From a virus (taxonomy: Duplodnaviria > Heunggongvirae > Uroviricota > Caudoviricetes): DNA of 16,161 nt. Made by a program: the position numbers and the translations under genes. A model generated the notes under the pieces. The model ran no database searches, was not told the origin of the DNA, and was given only the letters and a program-made list of their open reading frames with translations. The stretch lies in the IMG/VR virus record IMGVR_UViG_2737471845_000010, positions 1-16,161 of that record. The stretch is one strand, 5' to 3'. Below are positions 4,152 through 15,917 of the stretch, in pieces (position 1 is the stretch's first letter; each line of letters starts with the position of its first letter).

Positions 4152-4424
4152 TTACCTCCAGATGCGTTGCTGGAATGTGCGGGACGGACGCGGTGGGCGT
4201 TCAGAGTAAGGCAGTCTGACTGAGATTATCCAGTGTCGGAAGTCGAGGCTGAGGTCTTTCTGAAACTCGTAACCACGTCTGCGGTAGTTCTGAATTAGCC
4301 ACTCTGCCTGCTCTTCAGTGCATGGATCATGCTGGAACCAGTCGGTTTTAAATGCGCGCGAACGCCGCCCGTATCTGCTGGCAGGGGCGGTATCAGAATT
4401 GTGTAATTTGGTGTGGTGCGCCAT
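4152..4424 (-). CDS. hypothetical nin-region protein (start uncertain; may extend to TTG at 4478)
   Basis: ORF ends one base before the start of the HNH-like gene, suggesting translational coupling. First ATG is at 4424 (MAHHTKLHN…); the tracked ORF starts at TTG 4478. Neither start has a strong RBS. Confidence 0.45.
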   Translation of the reverse strand: MAHHTKLHNSDTAPASRYGRRSRAFKTDWFQHDPCTEEQAEWLIQNYRRRGYEFQKDLSLDFRHWIISVRLPYSERPPRPSRTFQQRIWR

Positions 4425-4605
4425 CTGTTTTCTCTGCTGGCGCAGCAGGTGCCAGTTGTTCAGGCTGGCGTGCGGCAATATTGTCTCTGATTTCTGTTGT
4501 CGTCAACCGCTTCTGTGCTTCCTCTCTTGATGAGTGAAGCGATTAACTTTACTATTTACTTAACAGGTTTTTCCTGTACCACGATTCCCTATACAGGAGG
4601 CCAGC

Positions 4606-6520: not shown

Positions 6521-6831
6521 TGCGTCACCTCACGATTCCTCAACCAGATACAAACCGGTCCATCCTCGGTGTCATGAATGGAGCCAATAAACCAGCCCTC
6601 ACCCTCTGGTCGTTCAGGTTCCCATGCGGAAATATCGGGACCATCTGCATCCGGGTTAAAATCATCTTCATCCATACTGCGAATAGTCCACTGAAGATTA
6701 TTTGCCTTCATCCAGGCGTTAAATTCTTCCGTCGAAATATACTCCCGGCCATCACAAAATTTTTCATATTCAGGATGCGTCCAGCAGCCATATTCATCAC
6801 GTTCTACCGGCAGTTCTTTGATTTCAATCAT
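6517..6831 (-). CDS. hypothetical acidic early protein (104 aa)
   Basis: Internal ATG at 6831 preceded by GGAG at suitable spacing; the first ATG of the tracked ORF (6858) has no RBS. Confidence 0.6.
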   Translation of the reverse strand: MIEIKELPVERDEYGCWTHPEYEKFCDGREYISTEEFNAWMKANNLQWTIRSMDEDDFNPDADGPDISAWEPERPEGEGWFIGSIHDTEDGPVCIWLRNREVTQ

Positions 6832-6844
6832 AACATTAACTCCA

Positions 6845-7021
6845 TTAAGATAATGCAAAACAAATTAACCACACCACGACAACCGATGCTATTAACACCC
6901 TGATTGCAAACAGCGGGCTGATATGTCGAAAAGGATTTTCCCAGATAATAAAAGCCGCTGCCAGAAATGCACTGATAAGTAAAACAATAACAAACAGCTC
7001 AATTTTGATTATCCAGAACAT
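6845..7021 (-). CDS. small hydrophobic membrane protein (58 aa)
   Basis: Two predicted hydrophobic helices (IIKIELFVIVLLISAFLAAAFII and LFAIRVLIASVVVVWLICFAL); start overlaps the upstream stop. Confidence 0.45.
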   Translation of the reverse strand: MFWIIKIELFVIVLLISAFLAAAFIIWENPFRHISPLFAIRVLIASVVVVWLICFALS

Positions 7022-7023
7022 AT

Positions 7024-7320
7024 TCACTGCATCGCCTTCTGTAAAATAACCGCATGCCCCAGCTTCTCCGCCAGCGCCAGTTCTGCCTTAGCACCCGCCG
7101 ACCGCTGCCAGCCATTCAGCATGTAAATCGCATCCACGCAACGTATCATCGCCATGCAGATATCCATGTACTGCGACTGAGTCAGTCCGTCCGGAAGTAC
7201 TGCCGGGTTTAAGACGGTATGCCCTTCCCGTTTCAGTTCCTCTTCTGCCTTGTGGAACGCCTCACGGTTGAAATTTTTATACCCGGTCATCGGACCGGCG
7301 ATATAAACCCTCACCCTCAC
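7024..7320 (-). CDS. DUF4406-like protein (nucleoside 2-deoxyribosyltransferase-like fold)
   Basis: GTG start with strong AGGAGGTG RBS, overlapping the upstream stop. N-terminal RVYIAGPMTG…FN…AF motif typical of this family. Confidence 0.7.
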   Translation of the reverse strand: MRVRVYIAGPMTGYKNFNREAFHKAEEELKREGHTVLNPAVLPDGLTQSQYMDICMAMIRCVDAIYMLNGWQRSAGAKAELALAEKLGHAVILQKAMQ

Positions 7321-9447: not shown

Positions 9448-9873
9448 TTAGTGCATCACCACAGCATTTCCTGCCGGGCCACCACGATTCATCTGATTGA
9501 AACCGGCGATTGCCACTGCGACAAAATCATCAGCGTCTCTCACCAGTCGTTCCCGCGTCTCCACCAACTCCCGAAAATAGACTGAACTGTGGCTGCGCAT
9601 CCGGGCCACCAGCAGAGGTGGCATTGCTTTTTCGATAGCCGGTAACAACGCCTGAATTTTTTTAACCGCATCAGGAGTGTCTTTCTCTACCCAGCGGAAA
9701 ATTTTCTGGGTATTGCGAGCCAGGGCTTCCGGATGGCTATCGTCATACAGTTCAGGAAACGTCATACCCAACTCAAAATAAGCCTGGGTTATTCCAGCTG
9801 CTGGAACTTTTTCACCGTCCGGATGCGCCCAGACATTCATCGCCATGCGGATGTGTTCATGCTTGATTTTCAT
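9448..9873 (-). CDS. YdaT-like (CII-position) regulatory protein
   Basis: Begins MKIKHEHI, as I recall for the Rac YdaT family. ATG overlaps the stop of the Cro-like gene (ATGA). Position corresponds to cII in lambdoid layouts. Confidence 0.7.
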   Translation of the reverse strand: MKIKHEHIRMAMNVWAHPDGEKVPAAGITQAYFELGMTFPELYDDSHPEALARNTQKIFRWVEKDTPDAVKKIQALLPAIEKAMPPLLVARMRSHSSVYFRELVETRERLVRDADDFVAVAIAGFNQMNRGGPAGNAVVMH

Positions 9874-10085
9874 GAATCATTCTTTCCTTCGTTCGAGGTG
9901 CTATCCTGCTTCTTGTAAAGTTCTGGGTTGTATTTCAATTCACCGTTAGTAATTTCATCCAGCTCCATTGCTCGAAGTTTGGGAATAACTGCTTTCCACC
10001 GCACAACAGCCACATGTGAAATTCCAAGAGCCTCAGCTACTAGTCGCTTTTTTTTGAAATAGCGCAGAACATCATCTTTGAACAT
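9870..10085 (-). CDS. Cro-like repressor (DicC/YdaS-like small HTH protein)
   Basis: AGGAGAG RBS upstream of ATG 10085. 71 aa with HTH (RLVAEALGISHVAVVRWKA). Divergent from the CI-like repressor gene across an operator-bearing intergenic region. Confidence 0.8.
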   Translation of the reverse strand: MFKDDVLRYFKKKRLVAEALGISHVAVVRWKAVIPKLRAMELDEITNGELKYNPELYKKQDSTSNEGKNDS

Positions 10086-10114: not shown

Positions 10115-10176
10115 GTAACAATAGTTACATAGCAATGTCAACCATAGCAACATCACTTGGTAGTAACATTGGTTAC
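10115..10176. promoter_or_regulatory. OR-like operator region: two GTAAC-N4-GTTAC palindromes between the divergent cro-like and repressor genes
   Basis: GTAACaataGTTAC at 10115..10128 and GTAACattgGTTAC at 10163..10176, the latter directly abutting the repressor ATG. A TTGACA hexamer is present on the minus strand in this interval. Confidence 0.6.
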
Positions 10177-10851
10177 ATGAAAAACACTATCAGCGAACGT
10201 ATTCGGAATCGTCGAAAAGACGTTGGATTAACCCAACAGCAGGTTGCGAAAGCAATCGGCATATCTCGTGTATCCGTAACAAAATGGGAAAATGGCTCTT
10301 CAAAACCTGACGGTGAGAATTTACATCTACTGTCAAAATTGCTTTCCAAATCTCCTGAATGGATTCTTTATGGAAAGGACGGTCACGATAAAACCGATGA
10401 TCTGCGTCTGAATCAGTACCTTTACATTAGTGACAACATCGCCCGGTTGCCCGTTTTAACGTGGGAACAGGCTGGTTATTGGGATATGAGTTGCCCAGTA
10501 ACCGAGATTCCTGGTATTAAGAATTGGGTTGATGTCATGACAAAAACCGCTGAAAACTCTTTTTTATTGCATGTTGAGGGAGATGCGATGACAAACTCTA
10601 ACGGCCTCCCAACCATCCCCGACGGATCTACCGTGCTGATCACACCATGCTCAAGTAACATTAGAGAACTGGCGGGGAAAATAATCTTAATCCAATTGGA
10701 AGGAACGCCAAACGTAACACTAAAAAAAGTTGCGATTGACGGACCAAACATCTATCTGTTGTCACTGAATCCGCTTTACAAACCCATCGAACTGAATGGC
10801 GGTTACACCATTAAAGGTAAAGTTTCACAAATACATCAATACTTAGATTGA
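10177..10851 (+). CDS. CI-like prophage repressor (N-terminal XRE-type HTH plus C-terminal S24 LexA-like domain)
   Basis: HTH segment LTQQQVAKAIGISRVSVTKWENG. C-terminal domain aligns by eye with lambda CI (…EGDAMT…; …VTLKKV…). Start chosen at ATG 10177; the tracked ORF begins at TTG 10078 and would overlap the operators and the cro RBS. Confidence 0.85.
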   Translation: MKNTISERIRNRRKDVGLTQQQVAKAIGISRVSVTKWENGSSKPDGENLHLLSKLLSKSPEWILYGKDGHDKTDDLRLNQYLYISDNIARLPVLTWEQAGYWDMSCPVTEIPGIKNWVDVMTKTAENSFLLHVEGDAMTNSNGLPTIPDGSTVLITPCSSNIRELAGKIILIQLEGTPNVTLKKVAIDGPNIYLLSLNPLYKPIELNGGYTIKGKVSQIHQYLD

Positions 10852-10855
10852 GTCA

Positions 10856-10883
10856 GAACCCGCATTCATTGCGGGTTTTTTAT
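10856..10883 (+). terminator. rho-independent terminator after the repressor gene
   Basis: AACCCGCA-ttcatt-GCGGGTT stem-loop followed by TTTTTT. Confidence 0.7.
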
Positions 10884-10912
10884 GCCCTCAAACGTACCTT
10901 TTGCAACATCGT

Positions 10913-10939
10913 ATTGACTCATGTGGTAACTCTTGTTAC
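10913..10939 (+). promoter_or_regulatory. OL/PL-like element: TTGACT hexamer followed by the third operator palindrome GGTAACtcttGTTACC
   Basis: Same GTAAC-N4-GTTAC half-sites as the two OR sites (10925..10938), located at the head of the plus-strand early-left operon. The -10 element is not clear. Confidence 0.5.
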
Positions 10940-11259
10940 CTTAACAACATACCAACCCACTCCGCCCCACAGAATGCAGGGCAATACTTCGAGTTACCAG
11001 GCAGTGGTCAGGGGGTAAGTAGCCAGCCCGAGGCGTAAGAACATGACGGCAGGGTTCAACTTTAACTATGCAGCAGGTTTTTGTTCCGCTACCCCGGCGT
11101 TAAGGGGAAACAGAGGATTTCTCAGTGGGCGAAGTCAAACATCAGAATGGAAGGCATCCTGGGCTCTGCAAAGAAGCAGCAATGGCGCTTTATATTGACA
11201 TCAGCGCCATTGCCGGACAGCTAAGAATTATCAGGGCGGTAACTAAGCGGTATGCGCCT

Positions 11260-11460
11260 TTACTTCAGAAAGTCTCTTGTGAGTGCACCGAAGATATTGT
11301 CAACGATTTCGTCATCGAACTGCGAAGACTCATCTTCAGTTACAAGGTGACCACAATTTTTGCAGATGGCTCCCGCGAAACTGTCAGAGCCCTGCGGCTT
11401 AAAGGATGTGTCAAAGACTTCGCCACCACATTCTGGGCAAGAAAACTTGATTGTATTCAT
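11260..11460 (-). CDS. small zinc-ribbon protein (66 aa), antisense to the early-left operon
   Basis: Two CxxC pairs (CPECGG … CKNCGH) with an acidic C-terminus; GAGAGGAAA RBS about 6 nt upstream of ATG. The overlapping plus-strand ORF 11125..11481 is the alternative reading and contains several rare AGA/AGG codons. Confidence 0.45.
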   Translation of the reverse strand: MNTIKFSCPECGGEVFDTSFKPQGSDSFAGAICKNCGHLVTEDESSQFDDEIVDNIFGALTRDFLK

Positions 11461-11552
11461 AACCAATTTCCTCTCGAGTAACAGACCCCTCAGAGGATAC
11501 CACCTCGCCTGACGTGGTTAAAAGCAGGCAACGCTAACCACAAGGAGCCGAC

Positions 11553-11750
11553 ATGCAGAAACGAGAACCCGTCATCATCGCGCCAGACTATACCGATGAT
11601 GAACTTTATGAGTGGATGCGCCAGAAAATTAATGCAGCGCAGGATTTGAAATGGGCCAATGAAGCTAGGGCTAAGCAGGCTGAAAATCTGTCCGCTCTGG
11701 AGCAGGATATCACCAGGCTGGAAAAAGCAGCGGCATTAAGCATTGCCTGA
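11553..11750 (+). CDS. small hypothetical early-left protein (65 aa)
   Basis: RBS AAGGAG 6 nt upstream of ATG; coiled-coil-like C-terminus. Confidence 0.65.
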   Translation: MQKREPVIIAPDYTDDELYEWMRQKINAAQDLKWANEARAKQAENLSALEQDITRLEKAAALSIA

Positions 11751-11793
11751 ATGATTACATACCCACGTTAATAGCTAACCAACGAGGCTAATA

Positions 11794-12201
11794 ATGGAAT
11801 TTAAAGATTTACCAAAAGAAATCCAGACAATTGCTGCAACGACTCTCGGTGATAGTCTGGTGAAAATTGACCCGGCATACACCAAAAAAGAAACCATCGA
11901 TAATATGGTTCGTAATGTGCGCAATGCTTTTTCTGGGCTATATGGTTCTGATAATCAAAAGCAGGAAAGCGATGTTAATAAACGGGTAATTTCTGTTTGC
12001 GTGAATGGCCATGTTCTTTCATCAATCAAAACAGAAACGGCGACAGTCTTCGATTGCCTTTGCATTGTACAGAGCCTTGTTGATGCCCTGTTTCGTTCAG
12101 TGAATTTAGAAAATGACGCAAATCTGCGAGGGCGCACAATAGCACATCCATATGCACATACTTTAGGCTCTGTGGATATCAAAGATCCCACAAATCTTTA
12201 A
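11794..12201 (+). CDS. hypothetical early-left protein (135 aa)
   Basis: RBS-like ACGAGG upstream of ATG; 3' end overlaps the convergent minus-strand gene by about 23 bp. Confidence 0.6.
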   Translation: MEFKDLPKEIQTIAATTLGDSLVKIDPAYTKKETIDNMVRNVRNAFSGLYGSDNQKQESDVNKRVISVCVNGHVLSSIKTETATVFDCLCIVQSLVDALFRSVNLENDANLRGRTIAHPYAHTLGSVDIKDPTNL

Positions 12202-12412
12202 TGAAATAGTTAACGCGAATTGTACTTGCTCTTTCAGTTGCTTTCAGAATACGCGTTGAAACTGCTGGCGGTAATTTGGTATTCCATTTATTAAAATCAT
12301 GCCCGGGAAAGTACTCTTCGAAAATACTTTTAACTGCAGACTCGCCTATTGAAATGCTGCTTACCATGCGATTTTGATAAAGGCATTTAGCAATAAGAGT
12401 TGATTTTAACAT
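12179..12412 (-). CDS. hypothetical 77-aa protein encoded opposite to the early-left operon
   Basis: Strong RBS AGGAGGG 4 nt upstream of ATG 12412; convergent 3' overlap with the 11794..12201 gene. Confidence 0.55.
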   Translation of the reverse strand: MLKSTLIAKCLYQNRMVSSISIGESAVKSIFEEYFPGHDFNKWNTKLPPAVSTRILKATERASTIRVNYFIKDLWDL

Positions 12413-12747
12413 TCACCCTCCTGAAGGTTGGTAATTAAGGAGTTCTCCACGGGTGGGGTGGAGTGCGTGCGCCGGACACGGGTGAGCATCCGGCACTGAC
12501 AGTTTACTGAAAGGATATTTCTCTGAAAAGTCAGAGCATAACGCGAAAGCGCACGGCGAGGTTGCTGGTTCATAGATAGCCTGTCGTTAAATTTTCGTCG
12601 ACCGTGCGCTTCCGGTTGTGGCACCCCGCGAAATGGCGCGGCGGTAAGTATGGCGGGGTTATCCTTACCCCCACTGGTGGCACCGGGTTGTCAGGTTGAC
12701 CATACGCCTGAGTGACAACCCCGCCACAACATCTCCATGTTGAGGCT

Positions 12748-12802
12748 TGTGTGAGACCTTTGGCGGCATCAGTTTAATTGCTGGCTGATGTCCGCCCTTT
12801 TT
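12748..12802 (+). ncRNA. dicF: DicF-like small RNA (cell-division inhibitor sRNA family) ending in an intrinsic terminator
   Basis: Sequence …CCTTTGGCGGCATCAGTTTAATTGCTGGCTGATGTCCGCCCTTTTT closely resembles my recollection of E. coli DicF (GGCGG…AUCAGUUU…CCGCCCUUUUU). Long imperfect hairpin GGCGGCATCAG / CTGATGTCCGCC plus T-run. Located directly upstream of a dicB homologue, as in Qin. 5' boundary is approximate. Confidence 0.55.
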
Positions 12803-12985
12803 AAAGTGAATTTTGCGATGCGGTGAATGCGGCTAAGCGCACGCGGAACAGTTAAAAAGGCCAGTTGACTTCCGTATTGGTTCTTATGGGTGGGTTCTCT
12901 GTATCCGGCGTTAATTGTTAACTGGTTAACGTCACCTGGAGGCACCAGGCACCGTATCACAAAATTCATTGTTGAGGACGCGATA

Positions 12986-13174
12986 ATGGAAACGTTATTA
13001 CCAAACGTTAATACGTCTGAAGGTTGTTTTGAAATCGGTGTCAGAATCAGTAACCCTGTATTTACTGAAGATGCCATTAATAAGAGAAAACACGAACGGG
13101 AGCTATTAAATCAAATATGCATTGTTTCAATGCTGGCCCGTTTACGCCTGATGCAAAAAGGACGCTGCCAATGA
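12986..13174 (+). CDS. dicB: DicB-like cell division inhibitor (62 aa)
   Basis: Translation METLLPNVNTSEGCFEIGVRISNPVFTEDAINKRKHERELLNQICIVSMLARLRLMQKGRCQ is near-identical to the E. coli DicB sequence as I recall it. GAGGA RBS; the tracked ORF's upstream extension is not needed. Confidence 0.8.
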   Translation: METLLPNVNTSEGCFEIGVRISNPVFTEDAINKRKHERELLNQICIVSMLARLRLMQKGRCQ

Positions 13175-13374
13175 ATACAGCATTTGCACTCGTTCTGACA
13201 GTTTTTCTTAATACAGGCGAACCAGTCGATCTTGTTATTGGTATACATGACTCAATGAAAGAATGCATGGCTGCCGCAGCGGAACAGAAAATTCCCGGCA
13301 ACTGTTATCCGGTTGATAAAGTTATTCGCATGGACAATAACGAAATCCCGGCAGGACTTAAAACAGCACCGTAA
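13171..13374 (+). CDS. ydfD: YdfD-like small membrane/lysis protein (67 aa)
   Basis: ATG overlaps the dicB stop (ATGA). N-terminal hydrophobic helix AFALVLTVFL, then …CMAAAAEQKIPGNCYPVDKVI…, resembling Qin YdfD from memory. Same gene order as Qin dicB-ydfD. Confidence 0.6.
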   Translation: MNTAFALVLTVFLNTGEPVDLVIGIHDSMKECMAAAAEQKIPGNCYPVDKVIRMDNNEIPAGLKTAP

Positions 13375-13454
13375 TTAATATCCGGTTTCATTTTTATATG
13401 CCAGCAATGGCAGGGATTTGTTCACCATTAAATCTGTAATGAGGTTAAAACAAA

Positions 13455-15917
13455 ATGAGTAAAGTTTTTATTTGCGCCGCCATTCCGGACGAACAGGCAA
13501 TAAAGGAAGAAGGTGCAGTTGCTGTAGCCACTGCCATTGAAGCCGGTGACGAACGCCGCGCCCGTGCCAAATTTACCTGGCAATTCCTGGAGCAATATCC
13601 GGCTGCTCAGGACTGCGCTTATAAATTTCTTGTCTGCGAGGATAAACCCGGCATGCCCCGCCCTGCTATCGACTCTTGGGATACCGAATATATGCAGGAA
13701 AACCGCTGGGATGAGGAATCCGCTTCCTTTATTCCGGTCGAACCAGAATCCGATCCGATGAACGTCAATTTTGACAAGCTGTCCCTTGAAGTACAGAACG
13801 CGGTCCTGGTTAAGTTCGGTACATGTGAAAACATCACCGTTGATATGGCGATTGACGCGCAGGAATTACTGCAGGAAGACGTTGCTACCTTTGACGGGCA
13901 TATCGTTGAAGCACTGATGAAAACGCCTGAAATTAACGCTATGTATCCGGAACGCAAACTGTTCGCTATCGGATGGGTTAAACACAAATGTAATCCGGGT
14001 GCCAAATGGCCCGAAATTCAGGCTGAATTACGTAACTGGAAAAAACGGCAGGACGCAGAGCGCAAAGAGACTGGAAAATACACGTCTGTTGTTGATCTCG
14101 CCAGCGCCAGAGTCAATCAACAGAACACTGAAAACTCAGCAGGAAAAATCAACCCAGTCACTGCCGCCATTCGTCGCGAATACAAGCAGACATGGAAAAC
14201 GCTGGATGAAGAACTGGCCTACGCTCTCTGGCCTGGCGATATTAATGCCGGAAACATTGACGGCAGCATCCATCGCTGGGCAAAAAATGAAGTTATCGAC
14301 AAAGATCGCGAAGACTGGAAGCGCATCTCCGCATCAATGCGCAAACAGCCTGATGCGCTTCGCTACAGCCGCCAGACTATTTTTGGCCTTGTCCGTGAAC
14401 GACCGATCGACATTCACAAAGATCCCGTGGCACTGAACAAATACATCACTGAATACCTGACTACAAAGGGCGTGTTTGAAGATGACGAAGGAACAAATCA
14501 GGGCGCAGCTAATACTCTCTCGTCGCCAGTACCAGAAACTGATGCAGTGGAAACGGCAATTCCGGACAACGAAAAAACCGAATGCAAAGTGGAAGTCGAA
14601 CCATCTGTAGAGCGTGAGGGGCCGTTCTACTTCCTCTTCACCGACAAGGATGGCGAAAAATACGGTCGCGCAAACAAACTTTCTGGTCTGGATAAGGCGC
14701 TGGCTGCCGGGGCTACTGAAATCACGAAAGAAGAATATTTCGCCCGCAAAAACAGTACATACTCAGGTTCACAACAAAATACTGGTGCATCTGACACGAC
14801 CGCACAACCAGAGCCGGTAAAAGTTACCGCTGACGAAGTAAACAAAATTATGCAGGCAGCCAATATCAGCCAGCCTGACGCCGATAAGTTGCTTGCTGCC
14901 TCTCGCGGAGAATTTGTTGCAGGGATTAGCGACCCGAATGATCCGAAATGGGTTAAGGGGATCCAGACCCGCGATTCTGTAAACCAGAACCAGCAAGAAA
15001 CGGAACAAAACAGCCAAAATGCGTTACAAAACGAGCCAGAAACGAAACAACCTGAGCCAGTAGCGCAACAGGAACCGAAAAAAGTCTGCACCGCCTGCGG
15101 TCAGAGCGGTGGCGGCAACTGCCCTGATTGTGGCGCGGTGATGGGCGACGCAACATACCAGGAAACATTCGATGAAGAGAATCAGGTTGAAGTTCAGGAA
15201 AATGATCCGGAGGAAATGGAAGGCGCTGAACATCCACACAAGGAGAATGCTGGCAGCGCTCAGGACCACGCCAGCGATAATGAAACTGGCGGGACGGCAG
15301 ATCCCTTAATTGCGGTGAACGGTCATCACGTTATCACATCCACCAGCAGAGTGTGGTACCACCTGATGATCGACCTTGAAACAATGGGAACCAACACCAA
15401 TGCGCCCATCGTGGTTATTGGTGCGGTTTTCTTCGACCCACAAACAGGGGAAATCGGGCCAGTATTTTATATCGTTATCAGTCTGACTGACGCAATGAAT
15501 ACAGGGGCTGTTCCTGACGGTGGAACCATCAAATGGTGGCTGAAGCAGTCCAGTGAAGCCAGAGCTGCCATTTTAACAGGCCAGGTAAAACTGAAGGATT
15601 CCCTTTCGCGGTTTCGGGAGTTCATCAACGAATACTCAGATGAAAAATTCGTTCAGGTATGGGGTAATGGTGCAACTTTCGATAACGCAATTTTGCGCAC
15701 CTCATACGAACGTCTGGACATCCCCTGCCCGTGGCGCTACCACAACGATCGCGATGTACGCACAATCGTTGAGCTGGGAAAAACAATCGACTTTGATGCC
15801 AGAACCGTTATTCCATTCGAAGGCGTGCGCCACAATGCACTGGATGACGCCCGTCACCAGGCAAAATACGTTTCAGCAATCTGGCAAAAACTGATCCCGA
15901 ATCCGGTTGATTTTTAA
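13455..15917 (+). CDS. large early-left protein (820 aa) with C-terminal DEDDh 3'-5' exonuclease domain; resembles prophage proteins annotated as exodeoxyribonuclease VIII
   Basis: C-terminal motifs MIDLETMGT (Exo I, D-x-E), WGNGATFDNAIL (Exo II), HNALDDARHQAKY (Exo III, H-x-D). Central acidic/Q-rich low-complexity linker containing a CxxC…CxxC zinc-ribbon (CTACGQSGGGNCPDCG). Occupies the position of the recombination/exonuclease gene in the early-left operon. Confidence 0.85.
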   Translation: MSKVFICAAIPDEQAIKEEGAVAVATAIEAGDERRARAKFTWQFLEQYPAAQDCAYKFLVCEDKPGMPRPAIDSWDTEYMQENRWDEESASFIPVEPESDPMNVNFDKLSLEVQNAVLVKFGTCENITVDMAIDAQELLQEDVATFDGHIVEALMKTPEINAMYPERKLFAIGWVKHKCNPGAKWPEIQAELRNWKKRQDAERKETGKYTSVVDLASARVNQQNTENSAGKINPVTAAIRREYKQTWKTLDEELAYALWPGDINAGNIDGSIHRWAKNEVIDKDREDWKRISASMRKQPDALRYSRQTIFGLVRERPIDIHKDPVALNKYITEYLTTKGVFEDDEGTNQGAANTLSSPVPETDAVETAIPDNEKTECKVEVEPSVEREGPFYFLFTDKDGEKYGRANKLSGLDKALAAGATEITKEEYFARKNSTYSGSQQNTGASDTTAQPEPVKVTADEVNKIMQAANISQPDADKLLAASRGEFVAGISDPNDPKWVKGIQTRDSVNQNQQETEQNSQNALQNEPETKQPEPVAQQEPKKVCTACGQSGGGNCPDCGAVMGDATYQETFDEENQVEVQENDPEEMEGAEHPHKENAGSAQDHASDNETGGTADPLIAVNGHHVITSTSRVWYHLMIDLETMGTNTNAPIVVIGAVFFDPQTGEIGPVFYIVISLTDAMNTGAVPDGGTIKWWLKQSSEARAAILTGQVKLKDSLSRFREFINEYSDEKFVQVWGNGATFDNAILRTSYERLDIPCPWRYHNDRDVRTIVELGKTIDFDARTVIPFEGVRHNALDDARHQAKYVSAIWQKLIPNPVDF

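Follow-up and report, generated by a model that had tools for sequence, protein, structure and literature searches.

A probable intact dicB–ydfD pair of the Qin type in the early-left region of a lambdoid prophage

Does the gene pair at 12986–13374 on the plus strand of this DNA form an intact module for cell-division inhibition and lysis, and is it placed under the control of a prophage repressor? An earlier note on the locus had proposed both, and we therefore examined the pair together with its surroundings in the whole stretch of 16,161 nucleotides, hereafter referred to as the window. The window represents the early region of a lambdoid prophage. Its minus strand encodes the Q antiterminator, RusA, a DUF968 protein, a DnaC-like ATPase, a replication-initiator-like protein, a YdaT-like protein and Cro, and its plus strand encodes a CI-like repressor followed by an early-left operon. 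In this direction the order is cI, the operator/promoter region, a zinc-ribbon gene on the minus strand, ydfC, a gene for a 135-aa protein, a second minus-strand gene, a DicF-like hairpin, dicB, ydfD and an exonuclease gene.

The first gene of the pair, dicB (12986–13174, +), runs from an ATG at 12986–12988 to a TGA at 13172–13174 and encodes a 62-aa cell-division inhibitor in a frame without frameshift or premature stop; a Shine–Dalgarno sequence (GAGGA) was read at 12974–12978. The product matches K-12 DicB at 89% identity and is the same protein (100%) as WP_042973094.1, which carries the annotation "cell division inhibition protein DicB" in E. coli tcmA_3. It matched the DicB families of both Pfam (PF05358; 129.1 bits, E = 4.9e-38, residues 1–62 of 62; cutoff 27) and NCBIfam (NF049927; 128.8 bits, full length; cutoff 100), which bears out the proposal that DicB is full length. 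Seven residues differ from the K-12 protein (K2E, T20R, Q36H, K43Q, P57Q, C60R and A61C), all of them at positions that vary in other alleles (29 alleles from 83 dicB copies). Cys61 is the sole rare residue among the seven, and position 61 is elsewhere occupied by W, A, C or R.

The second gene (13171–13374, +; ATG at 13171–13173) encodes a YdfD-like product of 67 aa. It is 73% identical to the 63-aa YdfD of K-12, so that 27% of the positions differ, and has the same sequence (100%) as WP_001090192.1 of E. coli tcmA_3, for which the RefSeq name is "DUF1482 family protein" rather than "lysis protein YdfD". Residues 4–61 matched Pfam DUF1482 (PF07358; 80.9 bits, E = 5.9e-23; cutoff 25). Two cysteines have been noted as conserved in the YdfD family (PMC8835842), and both are kept here as C32 and C45; the EQKIPGNCYPVDKVI core is likewise identical to that of K-12 YdfD. 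The variant departs from the K-12 form at both ends. At the C-terminus, four extra residues (KTAP) follow Leu63, at which the K-12 protein ends. This tail could matter, because removal of one C-terminal residue (deltaC1) or the substitution L63A weakens killing by K-12 YdfD (PMC8835842). At the N-terminus, V14N and S15T reduce hydrophobicity, with a Kyte–Doolittle 19-residue maximum of 1.58 compared with 2.00 in K-12. The description of this product as a small membrane protein is thus not established, given that its hydrophobic stretch is short and weaker than that of K-12.

The two genes overlap by ATGA at 13171–13174, where the dicB stop meets the ydfD start, and the second gene has its own Shine–Dalgarno sequence (AAGGA at 13158–13162). 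Together, the overlap and this ribosome-binding site are consistent with translational coupling of ydfD to dicB. PHROGs matches for the pair products were phrog_1251 and phrog_1092, the latter being that of the YdfD-like product (127 bits). Alignment of both products to K-12 DicB and YdfD revealed no inactivating substitutions, and each product is related to its K-12 namesake; the K-12 identity, the DUF1482 match and the ATGA overlap support the naming of the second gene as YdfD-like. We also considered longer in-frame open reading frames, one starting with GTG at 12890 (94 aa) and one with ATG at 13117 (85 aa), and the homologues all favour the starts at 12986 and 13171. Two antisense open reading frames (12769–13077 and 13077–13301, both on the minus strand) were rejected as genes, being used by no homologue annotation.

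We then compared the operon with the dicBF locus of K-12. Both follow the order ydfC, dicF, dicB, ydfD and exonuclease gene, both have the ATGA overlap and a near-identical dicB leader, and in both the operon lies downstream of an immunity region of the cI/cro type. The window differs from K-12 in having no ydfA or ydfB (tblastn of K-12 YdfA and YdfB against the window gave no match), in a truncated ydfC, in the insertion of the 135-aa gene and of two opposite-strand genes, in a different hairpin allele of DicF, and in a YdfD of 67 rather than 63 aa. In the ydfC homologue (11553–11750, +), codon 66 reads TGA in place of AGA (11748–11750), a single A-to-T difference from both tcmA_3 and MG1655 that cuts the product from 72 to 65 aa; K-12 YdfC aligned by tblastn with 97% identity over 72 aa, past this stop. 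Downstream of ydfD, the 820-aa exonuclease gene (13455–15917, +) is intact in the window but disrupted by IS2 in MG1655; its product has an Rv2179c-like 3'-5' exoribonuclease domain (Pfam, 228.8 bits, residues 636–810) and is annotated as "exonuclease" in tcmA_3 and in a K-12-like locus. The two opposite-strand genes within the early-left operon encode a zinc-ribbon (CxxC) protein of the ECs_2282 family (11260–11466, −; NCBIfam) and a protein assigned to phrog_10348 (12179–12412, −; PHROGs), and their transcription would be antisense to the dicF–dicB transcript. The annotation of phage Evi instead calls a plus-strand open reading frame (11125–11481) across the zinc-ribbon gene.

Taken together, these comparisons suggest that the dicB–ydfD pair is an intact allele of the known lambdoid (Qin-type) pair of E. 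coli prophages, located in the early-left, PL-equivalent operon, and we put the probability of this reading at roughly 0.88. Counted against it were the 27% divergence of YdfD, its lower N-terminal hydrophobicity and KTAP tail, a DicF hairpin stronger than that of K-12, a PL promoter that was not called, and the two antisense genes.

To place this allele among its relatives, we surveyed 80 IMG/VR loci encoding DicB relatives together with annotated loci, which yielded 83 dicB copies and 29 DicB alleles. A ydfD-like open reading frame lies directly downstream of dicB in 83 of 83 copies; the ATGA overlap is found in most of them, and alleles encoding a 60-aa DicB have TGAccATG at the junction. 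Crude pairwise dN/dS values were about 0.40 for dicB and 0.22 for ydfD, and YdfD's C-terminal domain (residues 29–63) was its most conserved part (dN/dS about 0.16). These values are consistent with purifying selection on both genes. The 67-aa form with KTAP is the commoner one among the sampled alleles, and the 63-aa form of K-12 is in the minority.

The pair is also widely distributed. With a 761-nt query covering DicF, the dicB–ydfD pair and the beginning of the exonuclease gene, similar DNA was detected in 4631 of the 5426 complete genomes of E. coli (about 85%), with a median of two locations in each; the features annotated there were named dicB and ydfD or DUF1482. This agrees with published reports of the dicBF locus as widespread, and often multi-copy, in E. 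coli prophages (PMC5069750, PMC6832061). Similar DNA was also found in deposited phage genomes, for instance in PPompW prophages and Stx2a-converting phages. A scan of contigs with the YdfD-like protein, a single-protein query that reaches close relatives only, returned one locus, from E. albertii. The tcmA_3 prophage with identical dicB and ydfD alleles has a different immunity repressor (11500–12144 of the tcmA_3 locus, L001), in whose S24-like domain the motif DDTM, as read from the unaligned translation, apparently stands at the G-x-S-M position.

Comparison with phage Evi (LR597642) delimited the pair as a unit. Homology of Evi with the window extends across DicF and the dicB leader, breaks off about 15 nt short of the dicB start codon, sets in again about 25 nt beyond the ydfD stop and reaches into the exonuclease gene (window 12970–13400 compared with 6790–7110 of the Evi locus, L003). 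Between these flanks Evi encodes a 73-aa FtsZ inhibitor of the KilR family (NF008465, 140 bits); the family was assigned by NCBIfam, and Pfam gave no match for this Evi "Kil protein". Judged from this alignment, dicB–ydfD is a discrete, exchangeable cassette. Since Evi carries KilR between homologous flanks, the slot appears to serve a division inhibitor in lambdoid phages. KilR, known from the Rac prophage, resembles DicB as a small division inhibitor of the early-left region and occupies the same slot in related phages, but it has no sequence relationship to DicB, and kilR is a single gene lacking a ydfD partner. DicB works through MinC, which KilR and lambda Kil do not require for their action on FtsZ.

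Upstream of dicB, the window contains a variant allele of a DicF-like sRNA (12748–12803, +), with a hairpin formed by GGCGGCATCAG and CTGATGTCCGCC and followed by T5. The Rfam DicF model (RF00039) matched at 12748–12797 over its full length (1–52) with 45.4 bits (E = 2e-08), below the gathering score of 48; at gathering thresholds Rfam gave zero matches in the whole window, and DicF surfaced only in the E-value search. Its position upstream of dicB and its 3' hairpin followed by a U-run are as expected of DicF, which has been described previously (PMC5069750). The flanks and the stem are conserved relative to K-12, but the loop reads UUUAAUUGCUGG where K-12 has UUUUACUCCGUGA, and therefore the CUCC that faces the ftsZ Shine–Dalgarno sequence is gone. 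The gain predicted for cofolding with the ftsZ leader is −16.3 kcal/mol for K-12 DicF and −7.4 kcal/mol here, and by predicted energies the loop-only duplex with ftsZ is reached by a fraction of 0.49 of shuffles here compared with 0.05 for K-12. Duplex energies of the whole molecule with ftsZ were not discriminating, as shuffled controls gave similar values.

The hairpin with its T5 doubles as a predicted intrinsic terminator in front of dicB, and a terminator scan marked a terminator-like site at 12765–12792. Its fold energy is −21.0 kcal/mol, compared with −15.9 kcal/mol in K-12, and read-through into dicB may be low because of this greater stability. The hairpin of the window type was found exactly in 50 IMG/VR contigs. 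Among dicB-linked loci (L004–L084) we distinguished hairpin classes of the K-12 type, the window type, a type with GGCGGGTATCC...GATACCCGCC and an E. albertii type, with flanks conserved across them and stems that co-vary. The CUCC loop is confined to the K-12 class; among the other classes, ftsZ pairing was computed for the window type only. Given the variant DicF, the absence of ydfA and ydfB and the premature stop in ydfC, we consider the term "complete module" used in the earlier note too strong.

The non-coding DNA on either side of DicF is also conserved. The dicB leader (12804–12985, +) is near-identical to those of K-12 and phage Evi, from which it departs in a 14-nt insertion and in one short variable patch. 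A weak Rfam match to STnc100, a Salmonella sRNA family (12795–13018; 34.9 bits, with a gathering score of 47), spans this leader and the first dicB codons; the leader may represent a conserved structured RNA that Salmonella prophages also have. Upstream of DicF, a non-coding stretch of about 330 nt (12413–12747) is GC-rich and highly conserved with K-12, and self-complementary segments such as GGCGGGGTTATCCTTACCCC are evident in it.

We next considered how the operon may be controlled. The CI-like repressor (10177–10851, +; 224 aa, with its start at 10135 or 10177) has HTH_3 and Peptidase_S24 domains in Pfam. Divergent from it lies a gene for a Cro-like repressor (9870–10085, −; P22_Cro, Pfam 59.5 bits), the product of which is 39% identical to K-12 DicC. 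The cro/cI intergenic region (10115–10176) holds two operator-like palindromes of the form GTAAC-N4-GTTAC (10115–10128 and 10163–10176), and a third, OL-like copy (10926–10939; inverted repeat I4) lies 75 nt past the cI stop. With up to one mismatch allowed, this pattern has four matches in the window, compared with a chance expectation of 0.31, and none of 200 shuffles reached four; the three exact ones all lie in the immunity region. Exactly three operator sites were found in 76 of 80 loci encoding the same repressor. The upstream CI-like repressor and the operator copies, including the one just after cI, speak for the proposed repressor control of dicB–ydfD.

From position only, a PL-type promoter of the dicF–dicB–ydfD operon would be placed beside the third operator. 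A −35-like hexamer (TTGACT, 10914–10919) adjoins the OL-like site, the best −10 candidate (TACCTT) matches 3 of 6 positions, and a scan for consensus sigma-70 promoters called nothing at this presumed PL. Between cI and the operator lies a likely cI terminator (10857–10881, +), read from the sequence as a hairpin of AACCCGCA and TGCGGGTT with a T-run, to which the terminator half of the Rfam Trp_leader model matches weakly. This chance-level terminator match was the only one in an Rfam E-value scan of 10840–12760 for put/nut-like antitermination RNA.

The alignment of the CI-like repressor to lambda CI (3bdn) places QAG on the A111–G112 cleavage site and LKKV on Lys192, and it places Ala at the position of Ser149 (VEGDAMT here compared with VEGNSMT in lambda; codon GCG at about 10585–10587). 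Loss of the serine nucleophile should abolish self-cleavage in LexA/CI proteins. The suggestion that the repressor may be non-cleavable is accordingly reasonable, with Ala replacing the catalytic Ser while the Ala–Gly site and the Lys are kept. Ala is present in 75 of 77 close relatives of the repressor in IMG/VR, and Ser in the other two, which argues that the nucleophile-less form is the prevalent allele and not a sequencing error. Because the nucleophile is missing, repression would more probably be relieved by an antirepressor or by stochastic switching between CI and Cro than by direct SOS cleavage. A Rem-type antirepressor was not found in the window (tblastn of K-12 Rem, no match), and an open reading frame at 4152–4478, beside the DUF968 gene, was considered for this role and has no similarity to K-12 Rem.

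As an early-operon repressor that is probably not cleaved through RecA, the protein resembles DicA of Qin and GfoR/GfhR of the Salmonella Gifsy prophages, which are non-cleavable and relieved by antirepressors. It differs from DicA (135 aa) in being a 224-aa HTH + S24 protein, 54% identical over the HTH. DicA is reported to lack the Ala–Gly bond required for RecA-mediated cleavage (PMC10448788), whereas in the repressor here the S24 domain is complete, with Ala–Gly site and Lys in place, and only the Ser nucleophile is missing. We tentatively advance, as a rather doubtful extension of the main reading, that this CI is naturally nucleophile-dead, so that the division block would be lifted independently of direct SOS cleavage, by way of an antirepressor or of stochastic switching, and that the variant DicF, having lost the loop opposite the ftsZ Shine–Dalgarno sequence, may have other targets than K-12 DicF.

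What the pair might do in the cell, beyond the identity of its genes, is modelled on the literature for the K-12 homologues, and this holds for filamentation, lysis and phage exclusion alike. While the repressor occupies the OL-like site, the operon would be silent; upon derepression, transcripts passing the DicF hairpin would yield DicB. DicB would bind MinC and bring it to the septum, where FtsZ rings would be dismantled and the cells would become filamentous, and it may also exclude phages that inject their DNA through ManYZ. These steps follow studies in K-12 of the DicB–MinC–FtsZ interaction, of ManYZ-related exclusion and of control by DicA, DicC and Rem (PMC10448788, PMC6832061). YdfD, probably translationally coupled to DicB, could inhibit IspG of the MEP pathway and lyse dividing cells, an effect that DicB would offset by halting division; for K-12 YdfD, IspG binding, lysis and its prevention by DicB have been reported (PMC8835842).

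Three other explanations were weighed against this evidence. The pair could consist of silent passengers, with transcription ending at the DicF hairpin and the nucleophile-less repressor never removed, so that both genes, in practice not expressed, would be remnants of a domesticated prophage. The strong hairpin with T5 directly upstream, the Ser-to-Ala change in the repressor, the ydfC nonsense change and the failure to find a Rem-type antirepressor in the window fit such a view. We nevertheless regard it as very improbable, since both genes show the signature of purifying selection and are intact in every sampled allele, and the neighbouring early genes in the window all have open frames. 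Moreover, the same arrangement of DicF hairpin and dicB in K-12 still gives DicB-dependent phenotypes upon promoter derepression (PMC10448788), and an antirepressor could sit outside the 16-kb window. A different possibility concerns the second gene: the 67-aa DUF1482 variant might not be a lysis protein like that of K-12, but act more weakly, or differently, or on another target, leaving the pair with division inhibition only. Its 73% identity to K-12 YdfD, its RefSeq name, the lower N-terminal hydrophobicity due to V14N and S15T, and the KTAP that follows L63, where deltaC1 and L63A reduce killing by the K-12 protein (PMC8835842), would all accord with this. The low dN/dS of residues 29–63 (about 0.16) and the identity of the cysteines and the EQKIPGNCYPVDKVI core argue the other way, and the prevalence of the 67-aa form among the sampled alleles suggests that it is the normal functional version and not a defective one; we therefore consider this explanation unlikely, though less so than silence of the whole pair.

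The strongest of the three, which we rate at somewhat below even odds, is that the module mainly serves the lytic programme of the phage, in an early takeover of the host comparable to that by lambda Kil or Rac KilR, with benefits to the host (exclusion, stress response) being secondary. The early-left position between the immunity region and the exonuclease/recombination genes points in this direction, as do the presence of kilR in the same slot of phage Evi and of similar DNA in PPompW prophages and Stx2a-converting phages. On the other side, DicB of K-12 shields its host from ManYZ-dependent phages (PMC6832061). A lytic role is compatible with the main explanation, and sequence cannot tell the two roles apart. 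The reading of the pair as an intact Qin-type allele is the one that we prefer.

The dicB–ydfD module is already known and very common, and its K-12 counterparts have been characterised experimentally, so that the present finding has little significance past correct annotation. The comparative points, namely the linkage of the pair and its swap with kilR, the 67-aa YdfD, the DicF classes and the Ser-less repressor, could steer the choice of alleles while leaving the identity of the module unchanged. Among the 83 copies surveyed, dicB and ydfD always move as one cassette, and the usual YdfD of prophages is a protein of 67 aa, whereas the one that has been studied, from K-12, has 63 aa.
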